In this document: positions 1 through 44,439 of the stretch, in pieces
Layout: every line of letters begins with the position of its first letter
Numbering within the stretch: the stretch's first letter is position 1
Assembly: GCA_023266055.1 (NCBI GenBank)
Contig: JAHFRW010000005.1
Coordinates: forward strand, 13,106-77,105
Source: Gammaproteobacteria bacterium
GTDB taxonomy: Bacteria; Pseudomonadota; Gammaproteobacteria; Ga0077554; Ga007554
Reading direction: 5' to 3'
Length of the DNA stretch: 64,000 bases
The notes under the pieces: generated by a model
What the model was told of the DNA's origin: nothing
Seen by the model: the letters and a program-made list of their open reading frames with translations, nothing else
The model's database searches: none
Position numbers and translations under genes: made by a program

Positions 1-484
1 CGTTTGCTTCCCTGGGTTCATCGGCCACACATAGCAGATGCCGCAGCTTTTGCCGTGCACGATGAATCAGGCTAAGCACCGAGCCGCGTGGCTGCGCCGT
101 AATAGCGCTGATTTCCTGTGCCGTATAGCCTTCAATCACGGCGAGAAACAGCGCTTCACGCTCCAGTGGCCGCAGCGTAGCCAGGGCATTTTCCAGTGCT
201 GTTTCGCTGACGGCGAACAGTGGATCGTTATCCTGTAAATGGTCGTCGACACCCCATTCCAGCGCGGTTTCTTCGATAGACACCATGGGTACTAGCCGTT
301 CGCGTTTATGCTGATTGAGAAAACGACTGCGGATCGCGCGAAATAAATATGGTTTATTGTGCGGTCCTCCTGCCTGCAGAGTGGCTACCCATGCGTCCTG
401 TAATATATCTTCCGCACTTGCCGGATGGTGAGTGAGTGACAATGCATAACGATATCCACTATGCAGCAGTTTTTGCAACGCCAT
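1..484 (-). CDS. ECF (sigma-70 family) RNA polymerase sigma factor; 3' end runs off the window start
   Basis: Manual reverse-strand translation from the ATG (complement of 482-484) gives MALQKLLHSGYRYALSLTHHPASAEDILQDAWVATLQAGG... (region 2) through ...TLRPLEREALFLAVIEGYTAQEISAITAQPRGSVLSLIHRARQKLRHLL (region 4 HTH). An in-frame TGA lies just upstream of the ATG. No stop occurs before position 1, so it is absent from the ORF track. Confidence 0.6.
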   Translation of the reverse strand, partial: MALQKLLHSGYRYALSLTHHPASAEDILQDAWVATLQAGGPHNKPYLFRAIRSRFLNQHKRERLVPMVSIEETALEWGVDDHLQDNDPLFAVSETALENALATLRPLEREALFLAVIEGYTAQEISAITAQPRGSVLSLIHRARQKLRHLLCVADEPREAN

Positions 485-501
485 TGTCGCGGTTGTTGTG
501 G

Positions 502-1312
502 TCACGGTCGGGCTGGAAACGGCAACACATCATATTCAGGAAGTTCAGGTGCCACCACGAGGATGGGGTCGCCGCTCAGGCTTTCGAGAAATGCACGCAA
601 TGCGGCTTTCTCGTCTGCCGTCAATCGTAACGGTTTGAGCAATGATGATTTCGTGCCGAATGGATCAGCATCACCGCCACGGTCGTAAAAATCGATGACA
701 GCCTCCAGTGAATCGAATGCTCCATTATGCATGTAGGGGCCAGTATATTTCAGTTCACGTAATGTGGGGGTGCGAAACTTGCCCTTATCCCCGGCGTGTT
801 TGGTGTCCAGAAAACGGCCTGGATCACGATCCAGTACGAGATAGTCAGCCTCCGCAATGCCTTTGGATTTAATGCGTTCGCGCATGGCGATTTGCCGTTG
901 CGGATCGGTCTCGAACGCTTTGTTGGGAGGAACTCCCACATTATGAAACGCCTGATCAGTGAGCATGGCACCATGATGGCATTGTATGCACCCGGCTTTG
1001 CCTTTAAACAGCGCCATACCTTTCATTTGCGCCGGATGGAGCGCCTTTTTATCACCGTTCATATACTGGTCAAATGGCACGTTCCTGGAGACGAGAGTGC
1101 GCTCAAACGCCGCGAGTACGTTTTCAAAAATAGGTGCCGTGCCAAAGGCGTCCTTAAAGCGTTTTACATAGGCTGGAATCTGCTTGAGCCGCTCTTCAGC
1201 TAACCCTGGATTCATGTTCTGCGCAAGCGGTCCGGTGATAGCTCTTTTGGTCTGTGCTTCAAGGGTGGGTGAGGAGCCGGTCCAGAAAAACTTGTTCAGA
1301 TAAGCGGTATTG
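502..1312 (-). pseudogene. di-haem cytochrome c peroxidase (CCP/MauG family), C-terminal fragment cut off from its N-terminal half by the 1313-5828 insertion
   Basis: The ORF 502..1383 contains the second haem motif CIQCHHG and GPYMHNGAFDSLEAVIDFY. Its true reading frame enters from the junction at 1312 (...VNTAYLNKFFWTGSSPTLEAQ). The MGHSTHRECPFYSGYLSLSEQYW 'N-terminus' in the track is read-through of the repeat and IS3 end. Confidence 0.75.
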
Positions 1313-1334
1313 ACCCAATACTGTTCGGATAAAC
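1313..1334 (+). repeat. left terminal inverted repeat of the katG unit (ACCCAATACTGTTCGGATAAAC)
   Basis: Exact reverse-complement match to 5807-5828. Confidence 0.85.
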
Positions 1335-1395
1335 TGAGGTAGCCTGAATAAAACGGACACTCCCGATGGGTAGAATGGCCCATCAGGAGAGCAAC

Positions 1396-1707
1396 ATGAG
1401 TAAACGAGATAAGACATACACGCCGGAATTTCGGTCGGAGGCAGTAAAGAGGGTATTAGAACAGGGACTCCGGCCAGAAGAGGCCGCCCATCGGCTGGGG
1501 ATTCCCAAGGGGACGTTGGCGGGTTGGATGGCCGCCGCGAAGTCGTCGAAAACACCCGCCGCCCCCGGCGCCCGCTCAGCGGGTGAACTTGAAGTGGAGA
1601 ATGCCCGGTTACGTAAAGAGTTGGTCGAGGCCCGGATGGAGCGCGACATCCTAAAAAAAGTGACGGCGTATTTTGCAAGGGAGTCATTGCCAGGTACGCG
1701 TTCATGA
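1396..1707 (+). CDS. IS3-family transposase OrfA (HTH DNA-binding part)
   Basis: MSKRDKTYTPEFRSEAVKRVLEQG...leucine-zipper-like C-terminus. RBS caggagag precedes the ATG at 1396. The ORF-track start at 1366 is probably too early. Confidence 0.85.
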   Translation: MSKRDKTYTPEFRSEAVKRVLEQGLRPEEAAHRLGIPKGTLAGWMAAAKSSKTPAAPGARSAGELEVENARLRKELVEARMERDILKKVTAYFARESLPGTRS

Positions 1708-2564
1708 AAGAGTGGCGACTCCAATTTCCCATCGAGACGATGAGCCGGGTATTTGAGGTATCGCGGAGCGGCTACTCCGACTGGCTCAAGCGCAAACCCT
1801 CGGCACGCGCCCAGGCGAACGAACAGTTGAAGATCGCGATTCGCGTTGCCCATAAGCGCTGCCGTGAAGTCTACGGGGCACTCCGCCTGCCACCCGAACG
1901 GGTGGCAGATGGGTTTATCGCGGGGCGGGATCGCATCATCAGGTTACGCAAGGAGAGGGGGATACGTTGTAAACAGAAACGTAAATTCATAGCGCCGACG
2001 AACTCGAATCACGCCTTGCCGGTTGCGCCGAACCTGCTGGAACAGAAGTTCAACGCCACGTGCCCGAATCAGGCGTGGGTGGCCGACATTACCTACATTC
2101 CCACCGAAGAGAGCTGGCTCTATCTGGCGGGGATAAAGGACCTGTTCAGTTGTCAGATCGTGGGCTATGCGATGGGGGCAAGGATGACGCAAGAGCTGAC
2201 AGGGCAGGCGCTCTTTCGTGCAGTGAAGAACAAACGACCGGAGGCAGGGTTGATCCACCACTCTGATCGAGGCAGTCAGTATTGCGCCCACGACTACCGC
2301 CGGATGGTAGAACAGTTTGGGATGCAGGCTTCCATGTCACGGCGCGGCAATTGCTATGACAATGCGCCAATGGAGAGCTTCTGGGGTAGCCTGAAAAATG
2401 AACTGGTGCATCATCGCCGTTACGCCACGCGCGCCGAGGCGGAGGCTTCGATCCGGGAGTACATCGAGATTTTCTATAACCGCCAACGACGCCACTCGCG
2501 CCTTGGCTATGTAGCACCGGCTGTGTTTGTGGATAGTTTCAACAAACAACAGGCCAGTGCTTGA
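1704..2564 (+). CDS. IS3-family transposase OrfB (DDE integrase core), made as an OrfAB fusion by -1 frameshifting
   Basis: 286-aa ORF with D..D..E integrase-core signatures (ADITYIPT...HSDRGSQY...DNAPMESFWGSLK). It sits in the -1 frame relative to orfA and overlaps the A7G motif. Confidence 0.85.
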   Translation: MKEWRLQFPIETMSRVFEVSRSGYSDWLKRKPSARAQANEQLKIAIRVAHKRCREVYGALRLPPERVADGFIAGRDRIIRLRKERGIRCKQKRKFIAPTNSNHALPVAPNLLEQKFNATCPNQAWVADITYIPTEESWLYLAGIKDLFSCQIVGYAMGARMTQELTGQALFRAVKNKRPEAGLIHHSDRGSQYCAHDYRRMVEQFGMQASMSRRGNCYDNAPMESFWGSLKNELVHHRRYATRAEAEASIREYIEIFYNRQRRHSRLGYVAPAVFVDSFNKQQASA

Positions 2565-2612
2565 GGTGGGTGTGTCCATTATTGACAGTACACCTCATTA
2601 TATGCCCAGCGT

Positions 2613-3074
2613 ATGCGTATCGAGGTGCAGTTTCGAGACACCAAGAATCTGGCGCTCGGCATGGGTTTATCGCAATCAAGGAGTCAGGGGCAGCAACGGT
2701 TACAGGCGCTGCTGCTGATTGCGCACATCGCAGAATTGGCAAAGCGCTTAATCGGCGAGGCGTCGCAGGCGCGACAACTGGAACTGCGACTGATGAGCAA
2801 CAACATAACAAAACGCAAAACAATCATCGGTGATGACGCTCGCCGCGCGCGTCATCGAGAGGGCAGACTTGTTACGCGAAATTACCGATGCGTGGTCATA
2901 CTTGCAAACCTTGCGAAGACAGGCGACATCGGCGGTTACTCAAGCGACGGGTGGGGCGTAATTCGTGGGGAAACCTCAGGGGCAGACCCCATTGAACTCT
3001 ATAAATTCGATCAAGGTGCGGGGGCAAGGCGAAAAGGGGCGGAAAAGCCACGCTCCGTCCGTAAAAAAATATAG
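2613..3074 (+). pseudogene. C-terminal remnant of a DDE transposase (IS4/IS701-like tail) truncated by the IS3 insertion
   Basis: ...RIEVQFRDTKNLALGMGLSQSRSQGQQRLQALLLIAHIAELAKRL resembles the conserved C-terminal R-x-IE-x-F-x-x-x-K block of IS4-type transposases. It begins 16 bp after the IS3 right end and has no upstream partner. Family assignment is from memory only. Confidence 0.4.
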
Positions 3075-3219
3075 ACAAAGTCTAAATTACCTGTTTAAAT
3101 TAGACTTATTCTAATTCGCGTGACGGATTGGAGACAAATTCACTTATAGAACATTGACCTGATTAACTTGCGGCATCGCTAACAGTTGTACACTTACCAT
3201 ATAACGAGGAGAATTATAC

Positions 3220-5436
3220 ATGTTAAAACAATACAGACCGTTGTTCTCTGCCATGTCAATTTCTGTATCTATGGCAATATCAGCAGGCTTTGCCGTCGCA
3301 GGGCCTATAGCTAATTCGAATCAATTCTGGTGGCCGGAAAAGCTGAACATTGAGCAACTGCGCGCTCATGATTCGACATCGAATCCCTATGGGGATAAGT
3401 TCGATTATGCCAAGGCATTTGCGAGTGTTGACATGAAAGCGCTGAAGGCCGATATTGAAAAAGCCTTGACCACATCTCAGGACTGGTGGCCTGCAGATTG
3501 GGGTCACTATGGTGGCCTGATGATCAGATCGGCGTGGCACAGCGCAGGTACCTACCGTATTCATGATGGTCGTGGTGGCTCGGACGGCGGTCAAATTCGC
3601 TATGAATCACAAAATAGCTGGCCGGATAATGCTAACTTGGACAAGGCACGTCGATTGCTGTGGCCGGTAAAGCAAAAATATGGCCGTAGTGTGTCCTGGG
3701 GAGACCTGATTATCCTGGCCGGTAATGTTTCGCTGGAGTCCATGGGCTTTAAAACGCTGGGCTTTGCCGGTGGCCGTGCAGACGACTGGGCGGCTGACAA
3801 GGTATATTGGGGTTCAGAAACAAAATGGCTTTCCAATGCTGAGCGCTATAAAGGCGGTAAACTGGAAAAACCATTGGCCGCTGTGCAAATGGGCTTGATC
3901 TACGTGAACCCGGAAGGTCCAAACGCAAATCACGACCCGCTTGCTGCTGCCGCAGATATGCGTGACTCGTTTGGCCGCATGGCGATGAACGACGAGGAAA
4001 TTGTGGCGCTTGTCGCGGGTGGACATACCTTGGGTAAAGCCCATGGTGCCAAGTCGGGTGAATGTGTCGGTCCAGAACCGGCTGCCGCCGGTATCGAGGA
4101 GCAAGGTTTCGGCTGGAAGAACAAATGTGGCAAAGGAAATGCTGAAGACACCATGACCAGTGGTCTGGAGGGTGCGTGGACTTCCACGCCGACGGCCTGG
4201 TCGATACTCTTCCTGGATAACCTGATGAGATTCGAGTGGAAGCAGACCAAGAGCCCTGCCGGTGCTCATCAGTGGATTCCGACGGATGAAGCGGCGGCAA
4301 ACCTGGTGCCGGATGCTCACATCAAGGGTAAGCGACATGCGCCGATCATGTTTACAACGGACATAGCGCTGAAAAATGATCCGGGGTTCCGTAAAGTCTC
4401 CGAGCATTTCCTGAAGAATCCAAAAGCATTTGATCAGGCCTTTGCGAGTGCCTGGTTCAAGCTGACGCATCGTGACTTGGGTCCCCGTGCACGCTATGTG
4501 GGTGCAGAAATCCCAAGCGAGGTGTTTACATGGCAAGATCCGATTCCAGCGGTTAATCATAAGCTGATTAACAGTGGGGACGTTGCCAAGCTGAAGTCGA
4601 AAATTCTCGACTCCGGCCTGAGTGTGCCTGAACTGGTTAGAACTGCGTGGGCATCGGCCGCGACTTTCCGTGGCTCTGATATGCGCGGCGGCGCCAATGG
4701 CTCACGTATTCAGCTGGCTCCTCAGAAAGACTGGGCAGTTAATAATCCGGCTGAACTGTCAAAAGTGCTGGCTAAGCTGAAGAGTATTCAGTCATCATTC
4801 AATCAGTCACTGAGTGGCGGGAAAAAAGTGTCGCTGGGAGACGTGGTCGTGCTTGGTGGTGCAGCGGCGATCGAAAAATCTGCTAAAGCGGCGGGTTACA
4901 AGGTTGAGGTTCCTTTCAAGCCAGGCCGTATGGATGCCTCTCAGGAACAAACGGATGTCAATTCGTTTGCTGTGCTGGAACCAACTGCTGACGCTTTCCG
5001 TAACTACTACACGGAGAGCTATGGGTCGCCGACAGAGATGCTGGTGGAAAAAGCTGACCTGTTAACGTTGACAGTACCGGAGATGACGGTACTTGTGGGC
5101 GGTATGCGCTCTCTGGATGCAAATAGTGGTGGTTCAAAACATGGTGTATTCACAGATCGCCCAGGTACCTTGAGTAACGACTTTTTCGTCAATCTGCTGA
5201 ATATGTCCACCAAGTGGTCCCCGACATCTTCTGAAGGAATTTACGAAGGTCGTGATCGTTTAACGGGTCAAGTTAAATGGACGGCGACACCGGTTGATTT
5301 GATCTTCGGCTCAAACTCGGAGTTACGTGCTGTTGCCGAAGTTTATGCCGCCAACGACGGACGTGAAAAGTTTGTAAACGATTTCGTTGCTGCATGGGCC
5401 AAGGTGATGATGCTGGATCGATTTGATCTGAACTAA
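3220..5436 (+). CDS. katG: catalase-peroxidase KatG with an N-terminal signal peptide (periplasmic, KatP-like)
   Basis: 738 aa. It has the haem-peroxidase motifs [11 protein letters not shown] and [10 protein letters not shown] and a duplicated two-domain architecture. The N-terminus [28 protein letters not shown] looks like a Sec signal. A strong RBS aggaga precedes the ATG. Confidence 0.93.
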
Positions 5437-5581
5437 TCTTCAATCAAAGGGGCTCTATGTGAAATACAGTGGGTAATCGAATTTCATCTTTCCACAGAGG
5501 AAGTAAATCATATTGATAACTGATGTTACGCGCCCCGCAGTGAGAAATTTGCTATCCTGCGGAGATGAAAAAAGCAGACCT

Positions 5582-5685
5582 TGAGGGCACCTCTAATAAT
5601 TAGAGGTGCCCGTGCGGTACAGGACGTGCCGCCATTTATCAATCTCTGCAAGAGATTGATAAATGAAGAAAAGAAAAAATCACAC
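5582..5685 (+). repeat. copy A of a ~104-bp structured intergenic repeat (two hairpins); its partner copy is at 44336-44439 in inverted orientation
   Basis: Hand alignment of the reverse complement of 5582-5685 against 44336-44439 gives about 90% identity. It contains GGGCACCTCTAATAATTAGAGGTGCCC and a 15-bp stem CATTTATCAATCTCT-gca-AGAGATTGATAAATG. Confidence 0.75.
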
Positions 5686-5702
5686 ATCAAAGGGGTCAGT
5701 CT

Positions 5703-5721
5703 CAATACTGTCCGGATAAAC
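5703..5721 (+). repeat. internal 19-bp copy of the unit's terminal repeat (CAATACTGTCCGGATAAAC, 1 mismatch), oriented like the left IR
   Basis: 18/19 match to CAATACTGTTCGGATAAAC within 1313-1334. Together with 5807-5828 it delimits a 126-bp MITE-like mini-element. Confidence 0.7.
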
Positions 5722-5806
5722 CATCCAAGCCAAAAATCCGTTCGGGCTGAGCTTGTCGAAGCCTGGCGTCACAGCGACTTCCCTTTGATAGGCTCAGGGC
5801 GAACAG

Positions 5807-5828
5807 GTTTATCCGAACAGTATTGGGT
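5807..5828 (-). repeat. right terminal inverted repeat of the katG unit
   Basis: GTTTATCCGAACAGTATTGGGT is the exact reverse complement of 1313-1334. Confidence 0.85.
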
Positions 5829-6128
5829 ATTGACCACCGTTTGCGAATTGCGCCAATGCACGGTGCCGGGATAGCCGATGGATAATTCATTACCGTCGCC
5901 CCAGCCGCGCTGGGGATCATGGCAGGTGGCACAGCTGGTGGTGGCATCACCCGAAAGGCGCGGATCGAAGAACAGCATTTTGCCAAGCTCAATTTTGGCG
6001 GGTGATTGCGGATTGCTTTCCAGTATGGGCACCGGCGGCAGGGCCGCCAGGGGATCAGATGCAACCGCGACGACCGGGAACGGGAGTAACAAGAGAGCGG
6101 CGCAGCGCGAGCGTAGAGCAATACGCAT
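5829..6128 (-). pseudogene. di-haem cytochrome c peroxidase, N-terminal fragment (signal peptide plus first haem CATCH), truncated by the insertion
   Basis: MRIALRSRCAALLLLPFPVVAVA...GKMLFFDPRLSGDATTSCATCHDPQRGWGDG...HWRNSQTVVNT, then read-through into the IR (QYCSDKP...*). RBS ttaaggagaac precedes the ATG at 6128. The ORF-track start at 6227 is too early. Confidence 0.75.
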
Positions 6129-6370
6129 GATGTTCTCCTTAAATATATTTAAAGATAGGGAAGATTTTGGCCCGCAGTTTTTCATACGGTTATCATGAAG
6201 ACAGTCGGTGCGTGTTTTTGATTGCAAAAGAAGCGAATGAATCGGGATGAGGGTAAGCGTTGTGCCGATCCGGTACGCACAATAAAGCGGCTATGAACCC
6301 CCGAAAAGGTAGCTCATGGCCGCAGTATTACGTCAGTAACTGATTGATGAAGGGTTCGGGAGAGCTGAAT

Positions 6371-6808
6371 TTACTGTATTTTACCCATGTATTCATCCAG
6401 GCGTTCAGCACCCATTGCCATTTTTTTGGAAAGCTCTGCGGCAGCCACCTTGGCCGCTGCGAGGTTAACGGGCTTGCCAACCTGAATAACCGCTACCATG
6501 CCCAGCATTTTATGCAGGTCGCATTCGTAAAGATAAATGCCTTCTTTTTTCAGGGTAACAGTGAAACCCTGGTTCACGGTGCCTTTCCAGTTATCTGCGC
6601 CTGGCGGCACATGGCGGGAGATCACGTTATGGCCGGGATCGTGAACCACAAAGGTTACGGTATCGCCTACCTTGGCTTGCAGGAAGCCCGGCTCGAAAAT
6701 CATGTTGCCTTCGGCGCCTTCGTCAACCATTTTGACCTTATGGTCTGCGGCAAATACGCTGGAGGTTGCCAGCAACCCCATGATTAATACCAGTCGTGCG
6801 GTGTTCAT
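6371..6808 (-). CDS. pseudoazurin-type blue copper protein with signal peptide
   Basis: 145 aa. Cupredoxin ligand pattern (...HN...YECDLHKMLGMVAVIQVG), signal peptide, and typical pseudoazurin length. Confidence 0.75.
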   Translation of the reverse strand: MNTARLVLIMGLLATSSVFAADHKVKMVDEGAEGNMIFEPGFLQAKVGDTVTFVVHDPGHNVISRHVPPGADNWKGTVNQGFTVTLKKEGIYLYECDLHKMLGMVAVIQVGKPVNLAAAKVAAAELSKKMAMGAERLDEYMGKIQ

Positions 6809-6967
6809 GCGGCGTTTTACTCCTTAATAATAATGTTTAGAGGCGCGAAAAGATGAGCTATTTTATCCTTTTTACAAAGGGTTGTGTACAAATAAAGAAC
6901 AAATTGGGTGTTTTTGACCTAGGTGCATAGGGCCCGCCGGATGTTACCTTAACGTAGCGGCGTCACC

Positions 6968-7321
6968 CTACAGGATCTCCAGTACCTTTTCGGGCGGACG
7001 TCCCAATGCCGCTTTGCCATTGGCCAGCACAATGGGGCGCTCAATGAGTGCGGGGTGTTCCCGCATGGCGGTAATTAACTCGTCCGCACTCAGTGCCAGG
7101 TTGGCTAGATCTAACTCTTTGTAAATGGATTCTTTTTTTCTCATTAGTTCGCGTGGGGTCATATCCAGCAGGCGTAAAATGCTCTTTAATTGTGCTTTGC
7201 TGGGAGGTGACTTAAGGTATTCGATGATTTCTGGTTGTACGCCCTGCTCATGTAAAAGCTGAAGGGTTTGCCGGGATTTGCTACAATGCGGATTATGATA
7301 AAATACAATTTTGGCGAGCAC
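6968..7321 (-). CDS. ArsC/Spx-family protein (glutaredoxin-type arsenate reductase family, YffB-like)
   Basis: N-terminal IVFYHNPHCSKSRQTL matches the ArsC-family catalytic Cys motif. 117 aa. Confidence 0.7.
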   Translation of the reverse strand: MLAKIVFYHNPHCSKSRQTLQLLHEQGVQPEIIEYLKSPPSKAQLKSILRLLDMTPRELMRKKESIYKELDLANLALSADELITAMREHPALIERPIVLANGKAALGRPPEKVLEIL

Positions 7322-14121: not shown

Positions 14122-14277
14122 GGCGATGTCCTTTCCTGTGTGAGATGCATGTTTAACAGACAGCATTATACCATGTTCGGGATATTGGGTAGCGTGGATA
14201 ACGCCGGGTCGGTGTTTCCCGCAACGTCGGCTAGGTATAATAGGATATCATTCTGAATGACAAATAAAAGGGTCGCC

Positions 14278-14685
14278 ATGTCCATCATTAAGCTGCCACG
14301 TCCACTGGTCAACGAGTTACTGCATCAGGCACAACGGGGGGCGGATTGTGAAGTATGTGGTTTGATCAGCGCCTGCAATGGCGTGCCAGCGCATTGTTAT
14401 CCCGTGCCCAACATTGCCGTTGCGCCACAGCAGCGCTTCAGCATGGATCCCAAAGCGCAAATTGACGCGTTACGCCACATGCGTGATCGTGGAGAAGATC
14501 TGTTCGCCATTTACCATTCCCACCCCACCGCTCCCGCCGCGCCGTCGGCAATGGATCGCGATGAAGCGGGTTATCCTGAAGTGCTTTATCTGATTATTTC
14601 CCTCAACACCCGAGGCGTGCTGGAAATGCGCGGGTTTTATATTCAAGATCAGAATGTGACAGAGGTGGCGCTGGAACTGCTTTAA
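14278..14685 (+). CDS. Mov34/MPN/JAB-domain (JAMM) metalloprotease family protein
   Basis: JAMM motif E..CG...(x)n...AIYHSHPTAPAAPSAMD (HxHx7Sx2D). A -10 TATAAT lies at 14236-14241. The ATG at 14278 has RBS aaaggg. Confidence 0.75.
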   Translation: MSIIKLPRPLVNELLHQAQRGADCEVCGLISACNGVPAHCYPVPNIAVAPQQRFSMDPKAQIDALRHMRDRGEDLFAIYHSHPTAPAAPSAMDRDEAGYPEVLYLIISLNTRGVLEMRGFYIQDQNVTEVALELL

Positions 14686-15839: not shown

Positions 15840-16589
15840 ATGACAGCTCGAAGAATTAGCAATCTAGCTCAACTACTCCAAGGTCTGAAAGAGGATGTCG
15901 GCTCCTACAATGGATCATTATGGTTCCGTGGCCATTCAAACAGTAGTTGGCAGCTCCTCCCCGGCTACTTAAGACTGACGGATGCGCCATCCGAGGGAAC
16001 GCTGCTAAAGAGGTTCAAACAGAGCGCGGCCTTGCTTGTACATCGAGAGCCAAAGGATAGCTATGACTGGCTTTTTTTGATGCAACACTATGGGTTGCCA
16101 ACAAGACTTCTGGATTGGTCTGAAAGTCCCTTGGTCGCTCTGTATTTTGCAGTCAATGACGCACTAGCAGATCATGAAGGGGATTCTGCTCTCTGGGTAC
16201 TCAAGCCATCAGAGCTAAACAAAGAAGCGCACATCAATGATCAAAGTGAAGAGTTCTTTGTTCCTTCCTTTGAAGACGAAGAATTAAGCAACTACAAGCT
16301 GGAAACGCTCGCCGCTGGACCAAAACGAACACGTCTTCTGCCGATTGCCAGCATAGCAACTAGAAATAACTCACGGATACAGGCTCAGTTAGGTGCATTT
16401 ACCATTCATCATCTCGACAATATTGCACTTGAAGATGTAGGATCAAAAACGCATGTAATAAAGTATGAAATCCCGCCAAGTTCTCGCGATGTTTTCAGGC
16501 GCGAATTGAAGCTTCTTGGGTATTCAAAATTTTCTCTATTTCCAGAATTATCAAGCATCGGTGAAAATATTCGGAGCACGCTGAGATGA
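15840..16589 (+). CDS. FRG-domain protein
   Basis: N-terminal ...YNGSLWFRGHSNSSWQLLPGYLR is the eponymous FRG motif. 249 aa, low GC. RBS ggag precedes the ATG. The stop overlaps the next start (ATGA). Confidence 0.6.
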   Translation: MTARRISNLAQLLQGLKEDVGSYNGSLWFRGHSNSSWQLLPGYLRLTDAPSEGTLLKRFKQSAALLVHREPKDSYDWLFLMQHYGLPTRLLDWSESPLVALYFAVNDALADHEGDSALWVLKPSELNKEAHINDQSEEFFVPSFEDEELSNYKLETLAAGPKRTRLLPIASIATRNNSRIQAQLGAFTIHHLDNIALEDVGSKTHVIKYEIPPSSRDVFRRELKLLGYSKFSLFPELSSIGENIRSTLR

Positions 16590-17656
16590 GTTACATTGAA
16601 ACATTTCCAATGCAACACAGCACGATCATGCGTCTCTACTCAGAGAAGGATCTAATTAACGCAGATCCAGACTATCAGCGCGCCGGTGGAATTTGGACAC
16701 TTGAGAAAAAGCAACTACTCATCGACTCTATCCTAAATTCGTATGACATTCCAAAAATCTATCTTCATGCATTTACTCGAGAACAACGCAATCAAAATAA
16801 ATTCTATTATGCGATTATTGACGGCAAGCAAAGGCTAGAAGCAATATGGAAGTTCATGGAAGGAGAATTTGCTCTTTCACCAGATTTTGAATACCAAGAA
16901 GACACATCTATTAATCTTATGAGTCTTGGCTATAGTGATTTGGCTGCCTCATATCCGAAGTTGAAAATATATTTTGACTCATTCGTTCTTCCAATCGTGT
17001 GCGTCGAAACAGATGATATCGAATTGATCGAAGATATGTTTTCTCGCTTAAACGAAGCTGTCCCGCTAAATTCTGCTGAAAAAAGAAATGCAATTGGTGG
17101 CGATTTAGTCGCTGCAATTCGTGATACCTCATTGCACCCTCTTTTTCAGAGTAAAGTTTCTTTTAGTAATCGCAGATTTCAACATCGAGAAGTTTCGGCA
17201 CGCCTACTATTGATTGAACATAATCTAATTATGTTTGGTAAAATAGCAGATACAAAAAAAATCCATCTTGATTCTCTTGCGAGAAATTACAAAAGCGGAA
17301 AAGAGTCAGAAGTTTATAATCTTAAAATTCTAGTTAAAAATAATTTGGATCTCATGGACACATTATTTGTCGATGAAGATGAATTATTACACGCACAGGG
17401 AAGTATTGCCCTGTACTATTTATTAGTGAAAAATGCCAAAGCGTTGTCGTACACTCTTACTCGCGCAAAAATATTTGAATTCAGGGAAGCAGTTCGCCAG
17501 AATCGAGCCTCGGCAGAGCGAGAGTACGAAAACGCCAACTTTGAACTTCTAGAGTACGACCGTCTTTCCCAACAGGGTACAAATGACGCATCGAATCTTC
17601 GTGAGAGGCTCAGGATAATCTGCGGCTTTATGGATATTGCGCCGGTTGCAATCTAA
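16586..17656 (+). CDS. DUF262 (ParB/Srx-like NTPase, GmrSD-N/SspE-N/DndB-like) domain protein without a DUF1524/HNH nuclease domain
   Basis: DPDYQRAGGIWTLEKKQLLIDSILNSYDIPKIYL...YYAIIDGKQRLEAIW (DGQQR-type motif). The C-terminal ~200 aa are helical with no recognisable nuclease motif. Translationally coupled to the FRG gene. Confidence 0.65.
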   Translation: MSYIETFPMQHSTIMRLYSEKDLINADPDYQRAGGIWTLEKKQLLIDSILNSYDIPKIYLHAFTREQRNQNKFYYAIIDGKQRLEAIWKFMEGEFALSPDFEYQEDTSINLMSLGYSDLAASYPKLKIYFDSFVLPIVCVETDDIELIEDMFSRLNEAVPLNSAEKRNAIGGDLVAAIRDTSLHPLFQSKVSFSNRRFQHREVSARLLLIEHNLIMFGKIADTKKIHLDSLARNYKSGKESEVYNLKILVKNNLDLMDTLFVDEDELLHAQGSIALYYLLVKNAKALSYTLTRAKIFEFREAVRQNRASAEREYENANFELLEYDRLSQQGTNDASNLRERLRIICGFMDIAPVAI

Positions 17657-17809
17657 CAATTCGTTCAAGCCGACCCTGAACATCCCCCGATTTAGCAGAC
17701 ACAAACGTCTACCTGAATCGGAGAAAGAGAAAGCCAAAATATCAGTAACACAAGAAGACCCCTCGATACAGCAATGAATTTAAAACCAAAGCCGTCCAGC
17801 TGAGTTTAA

Positions 17810-18268
17810 ATGGATGGCGTCCAGGTCCAGGTAGTCGCCAAGACATTAGATATCCATCCCTTTATGCTGTCACGCTGGCGTAAAGAATATCGGCAGGGAA
17901 AGATCGTGCCAGACAAGCGCAAAAAGGTTGTCAGTCTCAAGCAAGAAAAAGTCGAGATGGACAAGATTAAGCGGCTAGACAATGAAAATGTACGCTTAAG
18001 ACAGGAAAATGACCGACTAAAAAAGGGGCAACGGTTTCTCGCGGAGGAACAACAGCGAGATTCCGATGCATCCACCGATATGGAAAAGAACCAGACATCA
18101 AATATCTGTGTGACTGGTTACAAGTGTCCCGCGGTGGCTATTATGCCGGGCGAGATCGGCCCCTATCATCTCGCGCAAAAGAAGACACTATGCTGTGAAG
18201 CAGGATACGTGACATTCATCAGGAAAACCGGGGTATCTATGGTAGCCCAAGAGTCTACAAAGCATTAA
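17810..18268 (+). pseudogene. IS3-family orfA fragment (frameshifted)
   Basis: See above. The N-terminus is missing from this frame. Confidence 0.7.
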
Positions 18269-18371
18269 AAAGCGAGGGTATTGCAGTTGGTAAGAAACGT
18301 GTCGAGCGATTGATGCGTGAACATGATCTAAAAGGGCGCGTCGTCAAAGTGACACGACGGATGTTAATCAA

Positions 18372-18848
18372 GTGTGGGAATCTGATATCACCTCTATCAA
18401 AGTAAAGGGCGTCTATAAGCATCTGATAGTGATTATGGACATCTACTCACGCAAGATACGGGGCTGGTCATTAAGCCATACAAGAACCAGCAAGGATACC
18501 GTGACAGTCCTGAAACGGGTAATCAAGGCACGTTCACCAAGTGAAGCGATGATATTCCATACTGACAGAGGCATAGAATTCACCGGCCAGCCGTTCAGGA
18601 AGGAGCGCCAAAAACATGGCATACGACCCAGTGTTAATCGGTCTGGCAAGTGTACAGATAATGGCCATATGGAATCATTCTTCCATAACTTAAAGGCCGA
18701 GCGGATACGTGGCAGAGTATATGGAACGATGAGCGACCCAAGGGGAGCCTTGAATGGATATATCAATCAGTTCTACAATCGGAAACGAATGCACTCAGGG
18801 ATTGGCTATTTATCACCTGTAGAATATGAAGAGAGAGTAGTAGAATAA
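18372..18848 (+). pseudogene. IS3-family orfB integrase-core fragment
   Basis: DDE core motifs. Lacks its N-terminal part in-frame. Confidence 0.7.
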
Positions 18849-34558: not shown

Positions 34559-35704
34559 CTACAGCAACGCCGGTATTTCCTTTGCCAACGCATTCTTTTC
34601 ACCCGCCACGCTGCCGGTAACAACAAAGCCGCGCAGTTTTTCTTCGGCATCGAAATACAAGGCACGCACGCCGCCTTCCGGTGTTTCAATGCGCCATGCA
34701 CCCTCAATGCCCTGGGGTGGCGGCGACACAACCACCGGGTGTGCCGGGGTTTTCACGACAACAGGCATGGCAGGATACGTCACGGGCGTGGCCTGGCCTG
34801 CCAGCGTTTTTGCCAGTGCGCGGGCGGCGTTCATCAGCGGCATTACGAACAGCAATACCAGCCCTTCTACTTCCGCGCAATCACCCAGTGCATATACATC
34901 GGGTGCGCTGGTGGCCAGCAGGCGGTTGACCACAATGCCTTGACGTACGTGCAGGCCGGCGGTTTGCGCCAATGTAACACGTGGACGTAATCCCACACAT
35001 GACAACACAGCATCGGTGTTCAATGTGGTGCCATCCGAGAGCGTCAGTTGATAACCGCCCGCCGCGCTATTGTTTACCTGCGCCACGGTCTTGCCCAGAT
35101 GCCAATTCACGCCCAGCTGTGTCAGCCCCTGTTGCAATGCCTGCCCTGCGGGATCAGGTAACAGGCGATCCAGAGGTGTTTTGCTGGGCGCGATCACATC
35201 CACCGCCATACCCGCGTTACGCAAGTCATTGGCAAACTCGCAACCGATCAGACCCGCACCGATAATCGCCACACGTTTGGCATCACTTGTGGCCTGACGA
35301 AAACGTGTGTAATCCACAAGATCATTCACTGACATCACCGCCGATGCGGCATCACCTTCCATGGGTAGCCGGATCACATTGGCACCCAGCGCCAGCACCA
35401 GCCTGGTGTAGCTGATATCCTTGCCATTCAGGGTAATCGTGTGGCGTGTCGTATCAATAGCACTTACCCTTGCATCCGTATCAATGGTGGCATTTAATTG
35501 AGTGGACATTTGCACCGCATCGGCGGTGGCCAGTTGTCCGGGCTGTTTGCCGCTCGTGAGCGCGTTGGATAGCATGGGCTTGGAGTACGCACGCCCATCA
35601 TCCGCCGTAATGATATGCAGCGGCGTATCCTTGTCGAGTTTGCGAAATTCGCGTGCCAGCGAATAGCCCGCTAAACCGCTACCTATAATGATGATGGGGT
35701 GCAT
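34559..35704 (-). CDS. NAD(P)H:rubredoxin reductase (FAD-dependent pyridine nucleotide-disulfide oxidoreductase)
   Basis: MHPIIIIGSGLAGY...two Rossmann GxGxxG motifs (IIGSGLAGY, VAIIGAGLIGCEFA). Immediately downstream of rubredoxin. Confidence 0.8.
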   Translation of the reverse strand: MHPIIIIGSGLAGYSLAREFRKLDKDTPLHIITADDGRAYSKPMLSNALTSGKQPGQLATADAVQMSTQLNATIDTDARVSAIDTTRHTITLNGKDISYTRLVLALGANVIRLPMEGDAASAVMSVNDLVDYTRFRQATSDAKRVAIIGAGLIGCEFANDLRNAGMAVDVIAPSKTPLDRLLPDPAGQALQQGLTQLGVNWHLGKTVAQVNNSAAGGYQLTLSDGTTLNTDAVLSCVGLRPRVTLAQTAGLHVRQGIVVNRLLATSAPDVYALGDCAEVEGLVLLFVMPLMNAARALAKTLAGQATPVTYPAMPVVVKTPAHPVVVSPPPQGIEGAWRIETPEGGVRALYFDAEEKLRGFVVTGSVAGEKNALAKEIPALL

Positions 35705-35733
35705 GTTCTCTCCAATCCAATGATCGTTTTTAA

Positions 35734-35901
35734 TTAAGCGATGGGTATCATTTCGAAGTCGGCTTTCTCCACACCGCAATCCGGGCATGCCCAGGTTGCG
35801 GGGATGTCGGCCCAGCGTGTGCCGGGTGCAATACCATCTTCCGGCATGCCCATACTTTCGTCATAGATAAAACCGCATACAATACATTGCCATTTTTGCA
35901 T
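35734..35901 (-). CDS. rubredoxin (55 aa; two CxxCG knuckles)
   Basis: Manual translation: [55 protein letters not shown]. Absent from the ORF track because it is under 60 aa. Confidence 0.9.
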
Positions 35902-35946: not shown

Positions 35947-36420
35947 TTATCTCTTCACCTTGGCAAGCGTGGCCCGGTAATGATTCGCATGGCGCTCTTC
36001 AACCCTGGCCAATGCAGCGAAGCGTTTCGCGGCTTTTTCCAATGTGGCCTTGAAGCGCTGCGCGTGGTCAATGGATTCGGCGATCTGCTCATCAAATTCA
36101 CGTACTGCCTGTTCGTTGTTTTCCTGCATCGCCAAATGCCGGAACGTCGGATACATTTCGGTGTATTCATAGGTTTCACCGGCAATCGCCATATCCAGGC
36201 AGCGTTCAGCATTCATCTGATCCCTGGGGTAAAGCAAATCAAGATGACCAAACGCATGTTGCACTTCTTGCACGGCGGTGTCCTCAAACACCTTGGCGCT
36301 GGCTTCATCGCCCTGCGCGCGACAGATACCGGCGAAGTATAAATATTTGATATGCGCCATTGACTCGCCGGCAAAGGCGGATTCGAGATTTTTAATGGTA
36401 ATGGAATCACTGTGTTTCAT
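35947..36420 (-). CDS. rubrerythrin-family ferritin-like diiron protein (no rubredoxin domain)
   Basis: MKHSDSITIKNLESAFAGESMAHIKYLYFA...E..H diiron motifs (EVQHAFGH, EERHANHY). RBS gaggaga. Confidence 0.8.
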   Translation of the reverse strand: MKHSDSITIKNLESAFAGESMAHIKYLYFAGICRAQGDEASAKVFEDTAVQEVQHAFGHLDLLYPRDQMNAERCLDMAIAGETYEYTEMYPTFRHLAMQENNEQAVREFDEQIAESIDHAQRFKATLEKAAKRFAALARVEERHANHYRATLAKVKR

Positions 36421-36535
36421 GGTCGTGTTCTCCTCAATGTGATGGTATTTAATATGTGGTACGAACCACATGGATACATCATAGAGGCAGAGTGTCGATA
36501 GGTCTAATTGATTATTTATATAGAATCGATAGTTT

Positions 36536-37453
36536 TTAGCTATTTATATGCGTAATGCCGATGCTCTCAAAATCAAGGATTGTTTGCCGCAGCGCTTCCA
36601 CAGCCTCCGGCCGTGCATAGCTTTTGCGCCAGGCCAGTGCCACACGGCGGCTCGGCGCAGGCTTGACAAGCGGGCGTATGCTCAACATCTTGTCATGACG
36701 GCTGCCGCCTACAGAAGTGCTGGGCAGCACCGTAATACCTGCGCCGGAGGCAACCATCAAGCGAATGGTTTCCAGTGAACTGCCTTCCAGGGTTTTTTGC
36801 AGACCGTCACTGCTGCGATGACACGCCGGGCAGGCGCGTAATACCTGATCACGAAAACAATGCCCTGCTCCTAGCAACAATACCGTTTCATTGGCAATAT
36901 CGGCAGGGTTAAGCACGGTTTTTTTGCTTAATGGATGCCCCTTGGGCAACGCAACCACAAAGGACTCGTCATACAATGGTTGCGTGATAATGCCCGGTTC
37001 CTCAAACGGCAAGGCAATAATAATGGCATCCAGATCACCTTGTTGCAACCGTTTCGACAGCACGGCCGTGTAATTCTCATCAATTAATAACGGCATATGT
37101 GGCGCACGTGTACGCAGCAACGGAATCAATTGCGGTAATAAATAAGGTGCAACCGTATAAATAGCACCCAGACGTAATGGGCCTGTCAGCGGATCCTGTT
37201 CCTGTTTGGCAATGTGTTTGATCGCTGCCGCTTCATCCAGCACCCGCACCGCCTGGGCGATGATGCGCTCACCGGTTGCCGTTATGGTGATTTCATTCAC
37301 GCCCCGTTCAAACAGCGTCACACCCAGCTCACTCTCCAGTTTGCGCACGGCAACACTCAGGGTTGGCTGGCTCACAAAACATGCTTGTGCCGCACGCCCA
37401 AAATGGCGTTCGCGAGCGACGGCGACTATGTAACGCAATTCGCTCAGTGTCAT
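36536..37453 (-). CDS. oxyR: LysR-family hydrogen-peroxide sensor OxyR
   Basis: N-terminal HTH HFGRAAQACFVSQPTLSVAVRKLESELGVTLFER. Redox-active Cys pair in GAGHCFRDQVLRACPAC, aligning with E. coli C199/C208. Confidence 0.8.
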   Translation of the reverse strand: MTLSELRYIVAVARERHFGRAAQACFVSQPTLSVAVRKLESELGVTLFERGVNEITITATGERIIAQAVRVLDEAAAIKHIAKQEQDPLTGPLRLGAIYTVAPYLLPQLIPLLRTRAPHMPLLIDENYTAVLSKRLQQGDLDAIIIALPFEEPGIITQPLYDESFVVALPKGHPLSKKTVLNPADIANETVLLLGAGHCFRDQVLRACPACHRSSDGLQKTLEGSSLETIRLMVASGAGITVLPSTSVGGSRHDKMLSIRPLVKPAPSRRVALAWRKSYARPEAVEALRQTILDFESIGITHINS

Positions 37454-44335: not shown

Positions 44336-44439
44336 ATGTCATTTTTTCTTTTCTTCATTTATCAATCACTTGAGTGATTGATAAATGGCGGCACATCCCT
44401 GCGCCGCACGGGCACCCCTAATTATTAGAGGTGCCCTCA
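44336..44439 (-). repeat. copy B of the ~104-bp structured repeat (inverted relative to copy A at 5582-5685)
   Basis: Contains CATTTATCAATCACT-tg-AGTGATTGATAAATG (15-bp stem) and GGGCACCCCTAATTATTAGAGGTGCCC. About 90% identical to copy A, with compensatory stem changes. Confidence 0.75.

Follow-up and report, generated by a model that had tools for sequence, protein, structure and literature searches.

How did a catalase-peroxidase gene come to lie inside the gene of another peroxidase, and what carried it there? The question is raised by a 64,000-nucleotide stretch of a Gammaproteobacteria bacterium of the Ga0077554 lineage (GenBank assembly GCA_023266055.1, contig JAHFRW010000005.1, positions 13,106 to 77,105 of the forward strand; this whole stretch is called the window here), in which katG stands between the two halves of ccp, a gene for a di-haem cytochrome c peroxidase (CCP). 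The original prediction described a unit in which katG is carried between inverted repeats (IRs) and which was inserted into the CCP-family gene and split it, and this description was upheld by the repeats themselves and by the uninterrupted site found in relatives. The segment from 1316 to 5825 is most probably a non-autonomous transposable cassette, a mobile insertion cassette (MIC) or, equivalently, a transposon bounded by a solo insertion sequence (IS) end and a MITE (miniature inverted-repeat transposable element), which an IS4-subgroup transposase would have mobilised in trans.

The interrupted gene gives the first line of evidence. Deleting the unit together with one copy of the flanking ATTG (4,520 bp) fuses positions 502-1312 and 5833-6128 of the minus strand into an open reading frame (ORF) of 368 aa, and an excision of 4 bp more or fewer, in which neither or both ATTG copies are kept, breaks the frame. 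The continuous CCP frame expected from the prediction was thus recovered with a signal peptide and both haem motifs, CATCH and CIQCHH, and the rejoined protein aligns without a gap over the junction (...HWRNSQTVVNTAYLNKFFWTGS...) with intact homologues at 65-95% identity. Close homologues of this ORF carry PF03150 (CCP_MauG), and the ORF itself falls below the equivalog cut-offs of MauG (239 against 444 bits) and MbnH (221 against 363 bits). The split gene, with its two CxxCH motifs, is therefore placed in the di-haem CCP/MauG family, the models fixing neither its subfamily nor its true substrate. Its 3′ fragment occupies 502..1315 and its 5′ fragment, which bears the signal peptide and the first haem motif, 5826..6128, both on the minus strand.

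The state of the site before insertion was observed in two metagenomic contigs. The closest homologue of the rejoined protein (P0001, 95% identity) is encoded by an uninterrupted gene on the 1,597-bp Logan contig L043, which shows 91% nucleotide identity to both sides of the insertion. A contig from another sample, L052, presents the uninterrupted site at 93% nucleotide identity and reaches the downstream sigma-factor gene and the upstream intergenic region; the sites are considered orthologous because of this synteny. When both contigs were compared with the window by BLAST, their two pieces overlapped by exactly 10 bp, corresponding to the sequence GGTATTGACC, which is found twice in the window, within ccp on the left (1306-1315) and again on the right (5826-5835), and once in each empty site. 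Among the relatives, no split ccp devoid of IRs was seen, and the IR is absent from intact ccp genes. Both halves of the gene are free of stops and frameshifts, and their comparison with L043 gave a synonymous divergence (dS) of 0.30 and a ratio of nonsynonymous to synonymous divergence (dN/dS) of 0.07. Since the rejoined ORF is intact, 95% identical to P0001 and under a dN/dS of 0.07, the insertion is recent relative to the divergence from L043. As a separate observation, the 3′ fragment lacks, at about 1108-1115 of the minus strand, three codons (AAI in ...FENVLAAIAAFERT...) that are found in 9 of 9 aligned homologues; this in-frame 9-bp deletion near 1110, in an AA-I-AA repeat, could represent early decay or a polymorphism.

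The two ends of the insert are not built alike. On the left, the terminal IR CAATACTGTTCGGATAAAC (1316..1334, plus strand) is a solo IS4-subgroup end, beside which nothing else of the parent element remains, and it is a perfect inverted copy of 5807-5825. On the right, a third copy of the repeat, absent from the original prediction, was found at 5703-5721, with one mismatch in the 19-nt core and in direct orientation with the left IR. Because of this copy, the right end is a complete 123-bp MITE (5703..5825, plus strand), composed of a left repeat (CAATACTGTCCGGATAAAC, 5703-5721), an internal hairpin, and a right repeat at 5807-5825 with which the unit as a whole also terminates on the right. 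In the 64 kb, three occurrences of the motif were counted, and 0.00 are expected from shuffled sequences. The 85-nt interior of the MITE is hairpin-forming, the element folded as DNA gives -27.1 kcal/mol (z = -5.45), and a homologous 123-bp MITE is present in a metagenome-assembled genome (MAG) of Gallionellaceae (L013). Furthermore, the stretch 5730-5810 (CGTTCGGGCTGAGCTTGTCGAAG ... CTCAGGGCGAAC) matches multicopy, unannotated palindromic repeats of Sphingobium, Variovorax and other proteobacterial replicons, in up to 13 places per record.

Two further features were recorded next to the MITE. First, the 12 nt that precede the inner IR (GGGGTCAGTCT, 5691-5702) resemble the left flanks of MITE-type copies from the Gallionellaceae MAG and from a Hydrogenedentales MAG, L014 (GGGGACAGGTCT and GGGGTCAGGTCT), which may reflect either a preferred target or a MITE residing within a larger conserved repeat; strong target specificity has been reported for IS4-subgroup elements (PMC2266710). 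A Tn3-family reading of the adjacent GGGGTCAG... was considered under the criteria of ~38-bp GGGG...TAAG IRs at both ends, a TnpA or resolvase and a 5-bp duplication, and it was rejected: GGGGTCAGTCT occurs only at 5691-5702 and is direct instead of inverted, neither a TnpA nor a resolvase is present, and the duplication measures 10 bp. Second, a genome-specific repeat of 104 bp, containing the hairpins GGGCACCTCTAATAATTAGAGGTGCCC and CATTTATCAATCTCTGCAAGAGATTGATAAATG, lies at 5582..5684 of the plus strand, and a second copy, inverted and 91% identical, is found at 44337-44439, upstream of rsmG. The second hairpin shows a compensatory pair between the copies (CTCT..AGAG and CACT..AGTG), and an Rfam scan of positions 1-7000 returned no RNA family at E <= 0.1. 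The presence of one repeat both in the cargo and at 44.3 kb suggests that the cargo DNA may come from this genome or lineage.

The left part of the cargo begins with an IS3-family IS of 1,263 bp (1335..2597, plus strand; NF033516 at 320.9 bits, cut-off 160), which directly abuts the left 19-nt IR. It was correctly recognised as complete in the original prediction: it presents TG..CA ends, IRs that match at 21 of 30 positions, orfA (1396-1707) and orfB (1704-2564), an A7G -1 slippery site at 1653-1660 and a fused OrfAB of 389 aa devoid of stops. Its right boundary was set by comparison with an uninterrupted copy of the neighbouring IS10-like element on contig L045. A flanking target duplication of 3-5 bp was looked for at this IS3 element and none was found, the flanks being AAC and TTA. 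Because these flanks are not a duplication, the arrival of the element would have been accompanied by a deletion or by recombination between copies, which implies that a history of simple insertion is excluded and leaves the family membership unaffected.

Beside it stands a 382-bp remnant of an IS10-like element of the IS4 family (2598..2979, plus strand), 96% identical to positions 1318-1698 of L045, in which the full element spans ~351-1698 (1,348 bp) and has the ends CTGACGTTTCCCCAC. The remnant retains its own right end (...CCTCAG, of the CTGA... type) at 2979 and the C-terminus of the transposase from the YREK motif on, starting just before it; the motif reads Y-AQ-R-MRI-E-VQFRDT-K, and an extra A near 2826 causes a +1 frameshift. 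The remnant protein covers profile positions 235-303 of NF033591 (IS4_2) at 46 bits, its truncation accounting for a score that stays under the cut-off. In this way, the attributes of the IS10 subgroup (CT... ends, YREK, a length of ~1.3 kb) were all found, in remnant form only. The truncation of a transposase stub by a nested IS3 element had been predicted, and the stub is indeed cut exactly at the right end of that element; it is the simple nested insertion that was not supported, given the missing duplication. The left 970 bp of the IS10-like element, and anything that stood between the remnant and the 19-nt end, were probably lost by an IS3-associated deletion or by IS3-IS3 recombination. 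It was also observed that, in another metagenome, an IS630-type (DDE_3) IS interrupts the IS10-like element within 1-2 bp of the site corresponding to 2597/2598 of the window (L046, 2640-2700), and the TTATATG stretch of this element may be an insertion hot spot.

The passenger gene itself, katG (3220..5436, plus strand), encodes a catalase-peroxidase HPI of 738 aa, and its predicted intactness was confirmed by scores beyond both curated cut-offs (NF011635, 1204.6 bits against 981; TIGR00198, 1073 bits against 770) and by an end-to-end alignment with solved KatG structures, in which residues 27-737 align with PDB 5l05. The distal R/W/H residues, the proximal H and the residues of the Met-Tyr-Trp adduct are present in the translation (in a stretch of 21 residues and in IYVNPEG). 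An N-terminal extension resembling a signal peptide predicts export of KatG to the periplasm. The region upstream of the gene (2980..3219, plus strand), of ~240 bp and 41.7% GC, contains ATAG..CTAA repeats similar to LysR/OxyR boxes, and a promoter scan returned only weak promoter-like sites, one of them at 3072-3101.

Where could such a gene have come from? Its relatives, with 84-92% identity, are uncultured and Gammaproteobacteria-like, and members of the same 90% cluster, as well as homologues at 84-86% identity, are common in environmental assemblies. In all three relatives whose contig includes the upstream flank (L047, L050, L051), a divergent lysR lies directly upstream of katG in an ordinary chromosomal setting; a fourth contig (L048) starts inside katG, and its downstream context is chromosomal. 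Upstream of the katG in the window, no lysR or lysR remnant was found, the 5′ end of lysR shared by the relatives being absent from the alignment, and similarity to the relatives at 91-92% identity extends only from ~20 bp ahead of the start codon to ~14 bp past the stop. An OxyR-like gene located elsewhere in the window was discarded as the lost partner, having 34% identity to the lysR beside katG in L047, and neither lepA nor a remnant of a donor site was found in the 64 kb. The GC content of katG equals that of the chromosome around it, and the cargo has 51.9%, against 52.5% for the window. Since this composition is chromosome-like and the 104-bp repeat is common to the cargo and a distant part of the window, katG was probably captured within the same lineage from a chromosomal lysR-katG locus, and not by long-range transfer. 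A megablast of the whole unit against plasmids returned a sole match, a 71% identical katG in a Pseudoalteromonas replicon, and no plasmid-borne relative of the unit.

Given these parts, it must be asked whether the segment entered ccp as one piece. An alternative history, which we consider unlikely, would start with a plain IS4-subgroup IS or a MITE inserted in ccp with its 10-bp duplication, to which katG and the IS debris were added later by homologous recombination or gene conversion with a locus harboring the same IS ends. The three IR copies and the reduction of the left end to 19 nt do reveal a rearranged element, and the IS3 element lacking a flanking duplication requires at least one recombination or deletion inside the unit. 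Nevertheless, with the ccp halves 4.5 kb apart, such an addition would need a double crossover with a donor already organised as end, katG and MITE, which is itself the same composite, and it demands more steps than one transposition by the outer ends. Moreover, the intermediates of this route, ccp interrupted by the IS or by the MITE alone, were not found. A single transposition of the cassette is therefore preferred, and its ends have to be defined.

The core of the ends is the 19-mer CAATACTGTYCGGATAAAC, which was detected in 42 stretches of a collection of species-representative genomes, mostly at contig ends, as expected because it belongs to a multicopy IS. The sources comprise cyanobacteria (Nodosilinea, Leptolyngbyaceae), Anaerolineae (Anaerolineales), Gallionellaceae, and MAGs of Hydrogenedentales and Bacillaceae; four matches were set aside as not being IS ends, three inside a conserved sequence block (L012, L022, L032) and one inside a TPR gene (L039). 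The transposase adjoining one such end carries the domains Nterm_IS4 and DDE_Tnp_1 (L001), and that beside another matches the NCBIfam model IS4_1 (NF033592; L011). For the IS4 subgroup, a published table of the IS4-family subgroups lists the end consensus -AATR--------WTW----, with direct repeats 10-13 bp long (PMC2266710, Table 1), and the 19-mer agrees with this consensus at every specified position. Two MITEs of the family that preserve both ends are flanked by 10-bp duplications, one perfect (ATGACCACCC, L003) and one matching at 9 of 10 positions (L013). Thus, the katG unit has the IRs of a known type of IS, namely 19-nt repeats identical to the ends of ISs encoding Nterm_IS4 and DDE_Tnp_1 transposases, and a target duplication of the length typical of the IS4 subgroup, the perfect 10-bp GGTATTGACC.

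Two side observations concern these ends. The 19-nt sequence is exactly conserved across phyla in ISs with wholly different interiors (L001-L042), which is unusually strict, since the published subgroup consensuses fix few positions. In an Anaerolineae MAG (L027, 372-2390), a transposase of the IS1595 type (ISXO2-like), and not of the IS4 type, stands behind the 19-nt end on the opposite strand; it could belong to a nested IS or to another cassette with these ends. A literature search for the IR sequence found it in no paper.

The boundaries given in the original prediction were wider for the repeat and narrower for the duplication. The positions 1313-1334 and 5807-5828 are in fact complementary at 22 of 22 nt, and ATTG directly flanks both arms on their outer sides, exactly as had been described. 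These observations would fit 22-bp IRs (ACCCAATACTG...) with a 4-bp duplication, as in elements of the IS5, IS701 or IS1182 type, and the IS701 end consensus ---YACT-Y--YR fits the 19-mer in part. Nonetheless, this parse is very improbable. The ends of the relatives start at CAATACTG, the bases preceding the CAAT of the 19-mer varying among copies; the two family MITEs have duplications of 10 bp and not of 4 bp; the transposases associated with these ends are those of the IS4 subgroup; and the match of the outer ACC/GGT to ccp on both sides would have to be a coincidence of ~1 in 4,096. On account of the ends of family members, the duplications of the family MITEs, the subgroup consensus and the empty sites, the element is best parsed as 1316-5825 (4,510 bp), with the 19-nt IR CAATACTGTTCGGATAAAC and the 10-bp target duplication GGTATTGACC. 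The outer ACC/GGT would then be target bases, and the apparent 22-nt repeat with its 4-bp duplication arises because the target's own ends (GGT...ACC) appear to be palindromic by chance. The strings noted at the outset are therefore real, and only their boundaries were shifted. This constitutes a pitfall for the delimitation of mobile elements, as a target with palindromic ends makes the IR look longer, and the duplication shorter, than they truly are.

How, then, could the cassette have moved? Between the IRs, no transposase matching the 19-nt ends is encoded, the cargo coding only for the OrfAB of the IS3 element and for the IS10-like remnant (ends CTGACG...), and a tblastn search with IS4-subgroup transposases gave no match in the 64-kb window. 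The unit thus combines the lack of a cognate transposase with an unrelated passenger, katG. The prediction that a hydroperoxidase gene had moved as a transposon-like unit is supported as to the form of the cassette, and it has to be amended as to the enzyme: because the unit lacks its own transposase, its movement would have occurred in trans. A transposase of the IS4 subgroup, encoded by a full-length IS at some other place in the cell, would recognise the two outermost 19-nt ends, and a single cut-and-paste event, of the kind performed by IS4-family DDE enzymes, would place the segment in ccp, leaving the 10-bp duplication GGTATTGACC from the staggered cut. The passenger katG and its own upstream region, together with IS debris, were probably captured from a lysR-katG locus on the chromosome of this lineage. 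Either earlier or later than the jump, IS3-IS3 recombination or an adjacent deletion would have eliminated all of the DNA from the left 19-nt end to the middle of the IS10-like element, leaving one intact IS3 element with mismatched flanks and possibly deleting the cognate transposase gene. As a net result, a periplasmic di-haem cytochrome c peroxidase is lost, and a KatG with a signal peptide and no adjacent LysR is gained or relocated.

Several points weigh against this interpretation. No second copy of the unit and no donor locus was found, and scans of metagenomes for the junction between the IR and the IS3 element (TGTTCGGATAAACTGAGGTAGCCTGAAT) and for the right end of the MITE (GAACRGGTTTATCCGRACAGTATTG) gave 0 matches, which is a weak test, as exact matches were required in one collection; repeated mobility, as occurrence at more than one site or in more than one genome, was accordingly not seen, and a single locus is known. 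The cognate full-length IS was not found within the 64 kb of this genome that were covered. The left end has only 19 nt and is directly abutted by the IS3 element, and a larger structure, or an autonomous one, may be what was transposed. The export of KatG is predicted, and its expression is putative. Finally, independent Logan assemblies reproduce positions 1-2435 and 2497-5484 at 100% identity, and the right junction, between the MITE and ccp, has no such independent support.

This last point, together with the metagenome-type assembly and the repetitive nature of IS ends, could favour an assembly chimera in which katG and IS sequences were joined to ccp through repeated IS ends. Such an artefact is hardly credible, since it would not yield matching inverted ends enclosed by an exact 10-bp duplication, with a frame restored on excision, and the independent contigs span, at full identity, the left junction and the stretch from the IS3 element through the stub to katG. 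Close to untenable is an autonomous 'transporter IS' whose own enzyme, the stub at 2598-2960, was inactivated by the IS3 element: the stub does derive from an IS4-family transposase and is located between the IRs, and it was rejected as the unit's own transposase, and as related to the terminal repeats, given its 96% identity to an IS10-like element with other ends (CTGACGTTTCCCCAC), a right end intact at 2979 inside the unit, and a model (IS4_2) that differs from the IS4_1 and Nterm_IS4 of the transposases by the 19-nt ends.

Outside the insert, a cupredoxin gene of the pseudoazurin-like type (6371..6808, minus strand; PF00127 Copper-bind, 44 bits) shares the strand of ccp and lies directly upstream of it. 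Its product could plausibly have passed electrons to the lost peroxidase, which would fit a peroxidase with a pseudoazurin donor. Farther away, genes resembling those of rubredoxin reductase (NorW-like, 34559-35788), rubrerythrin (35947-36471) and OxyR (a LysR-type gene at 36536-37453; 245 bits against a cut-off of 329) are present, in agreement with the peroxide-defence neighbourhood noticed before; the link to the unit is weak because these genes are ~30 kb away. A second and unrelated IS3-family remnant (HTH_Tnp_1 at 17810-18268 and rve at 18372-18848) adjoins FRG- and GmrSD_N-domain genes (15840-17656) as well as a Prok-JAB gene (14257-14685); the region 15840-18848 and its neighbour may form a small defence or mobile island. 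No tRNA genes were found in the window.

What does the locus mean, if the cassette was mobilised in trans as proposed? It would be a fully delimited natural case in which IS ends alone make an ordinary chromosomal stress gene mobile, and the IS4 subgroup would join the IS231 subgroup in having passenger-carrying cassettes. A gene-for-gene exchange in peroxide defence would also have taken place, with the periplasmic CCP lost, a signal-peptide KatG gained and its regulator left behind. The current understanding of transposition is unchanged by this. A stronger claim would hold that this is an active, selectable oxidative-stress module, the first MIC on IS4-subgroup ends, in which a periplasmic KatG free of LysR functionally replaces a cytochrome-c-dependent periplasmic peroxidase, and that, as the 19-nt end is exact from cyanobacteria to Chloroflexi, Proteobacteria and Bacillaceae, the resident transposases of very distant hosts could pick up such cassettes; this is possible and yet doubtful.

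Among known systems, Tn10 and Tn5 are similar in using IS4-family ends to mobilise a gene and in their duplication of 9-10 bp. The katG unit differs from them by the lack of flanking complete IS copies, its IS10-like fragment being a passenger remnant and not an end, and a classical composite transposon was discarded for the same locus, which has a solo 19-nt IR on the left, a 123-bp MITE on the right and no two complete ISs. With IS4 of E. coli and the other ISs of its subgroup, the unit has in common the end consensus -AATR--------WTW---- and duplications in the range of 10-13 bp (PMC2266710); in contrast to them, it has no transposase gene and holds 4.5 kb of foreign cargo. Composites bounded by MITEs, such as integron mobilization units and the MITE-flanked integrons of Acinetobacter, likewise move a gene segment by means of short non-autonomous IS derivatives (PMC5444012). 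These composites have a MITE at both ends, whereas the katG unit has a complete MITE on the right only and, on the left, a bare repeat by the IS3 element.

The closest likeness is to MICs, which have IS-type IRs around one or more passenger genes, no cognate transposase, a target duplication and a disrupted gene. On IncU plasmids of Aeromonas, the MIC that carries qnrS2 has IRs of 22 bp; it disrupts mpR and includes a MITE (PMC5444012), and MIC231 of Bacillus cereus, with IS231/IS4-family ends, has been cited as a mobile insertion cassette (PMC2266710). In 2008, extra DNA with putative passenger genes, a modular trait of IS231 elements, had been seen in none of the remaining IS4 subgroups (PMC2266710). 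A keyword search of the literature for katG as a transposon passenger revealed no MIC-type case, the matches being on other topics only, among them metabolic genes of conjugative plasmids and the mobilisation of ISs under oxidative stress. Mobilisation of MIC231 in trans was reportedly demonstrated by experiment (Chen et al. 1999). MIC231 has IS231 ends, whereas the katG unit has those of the IS4 subgroup and its movement in trans is deduced from sequence; relative to both MIC231 and the qnrS2 cassette, it is further distinguished by a catalase-peroxidase passenger, by an intact IS3 element and an IS10-like remnant in the cargo, and by ends consisting of a solo 19-nt IR and a whole MITE. Seen beside these systems, the katG unit is genuine and, as a non-autonomous mobile insertion cassette, rather unremarkable.

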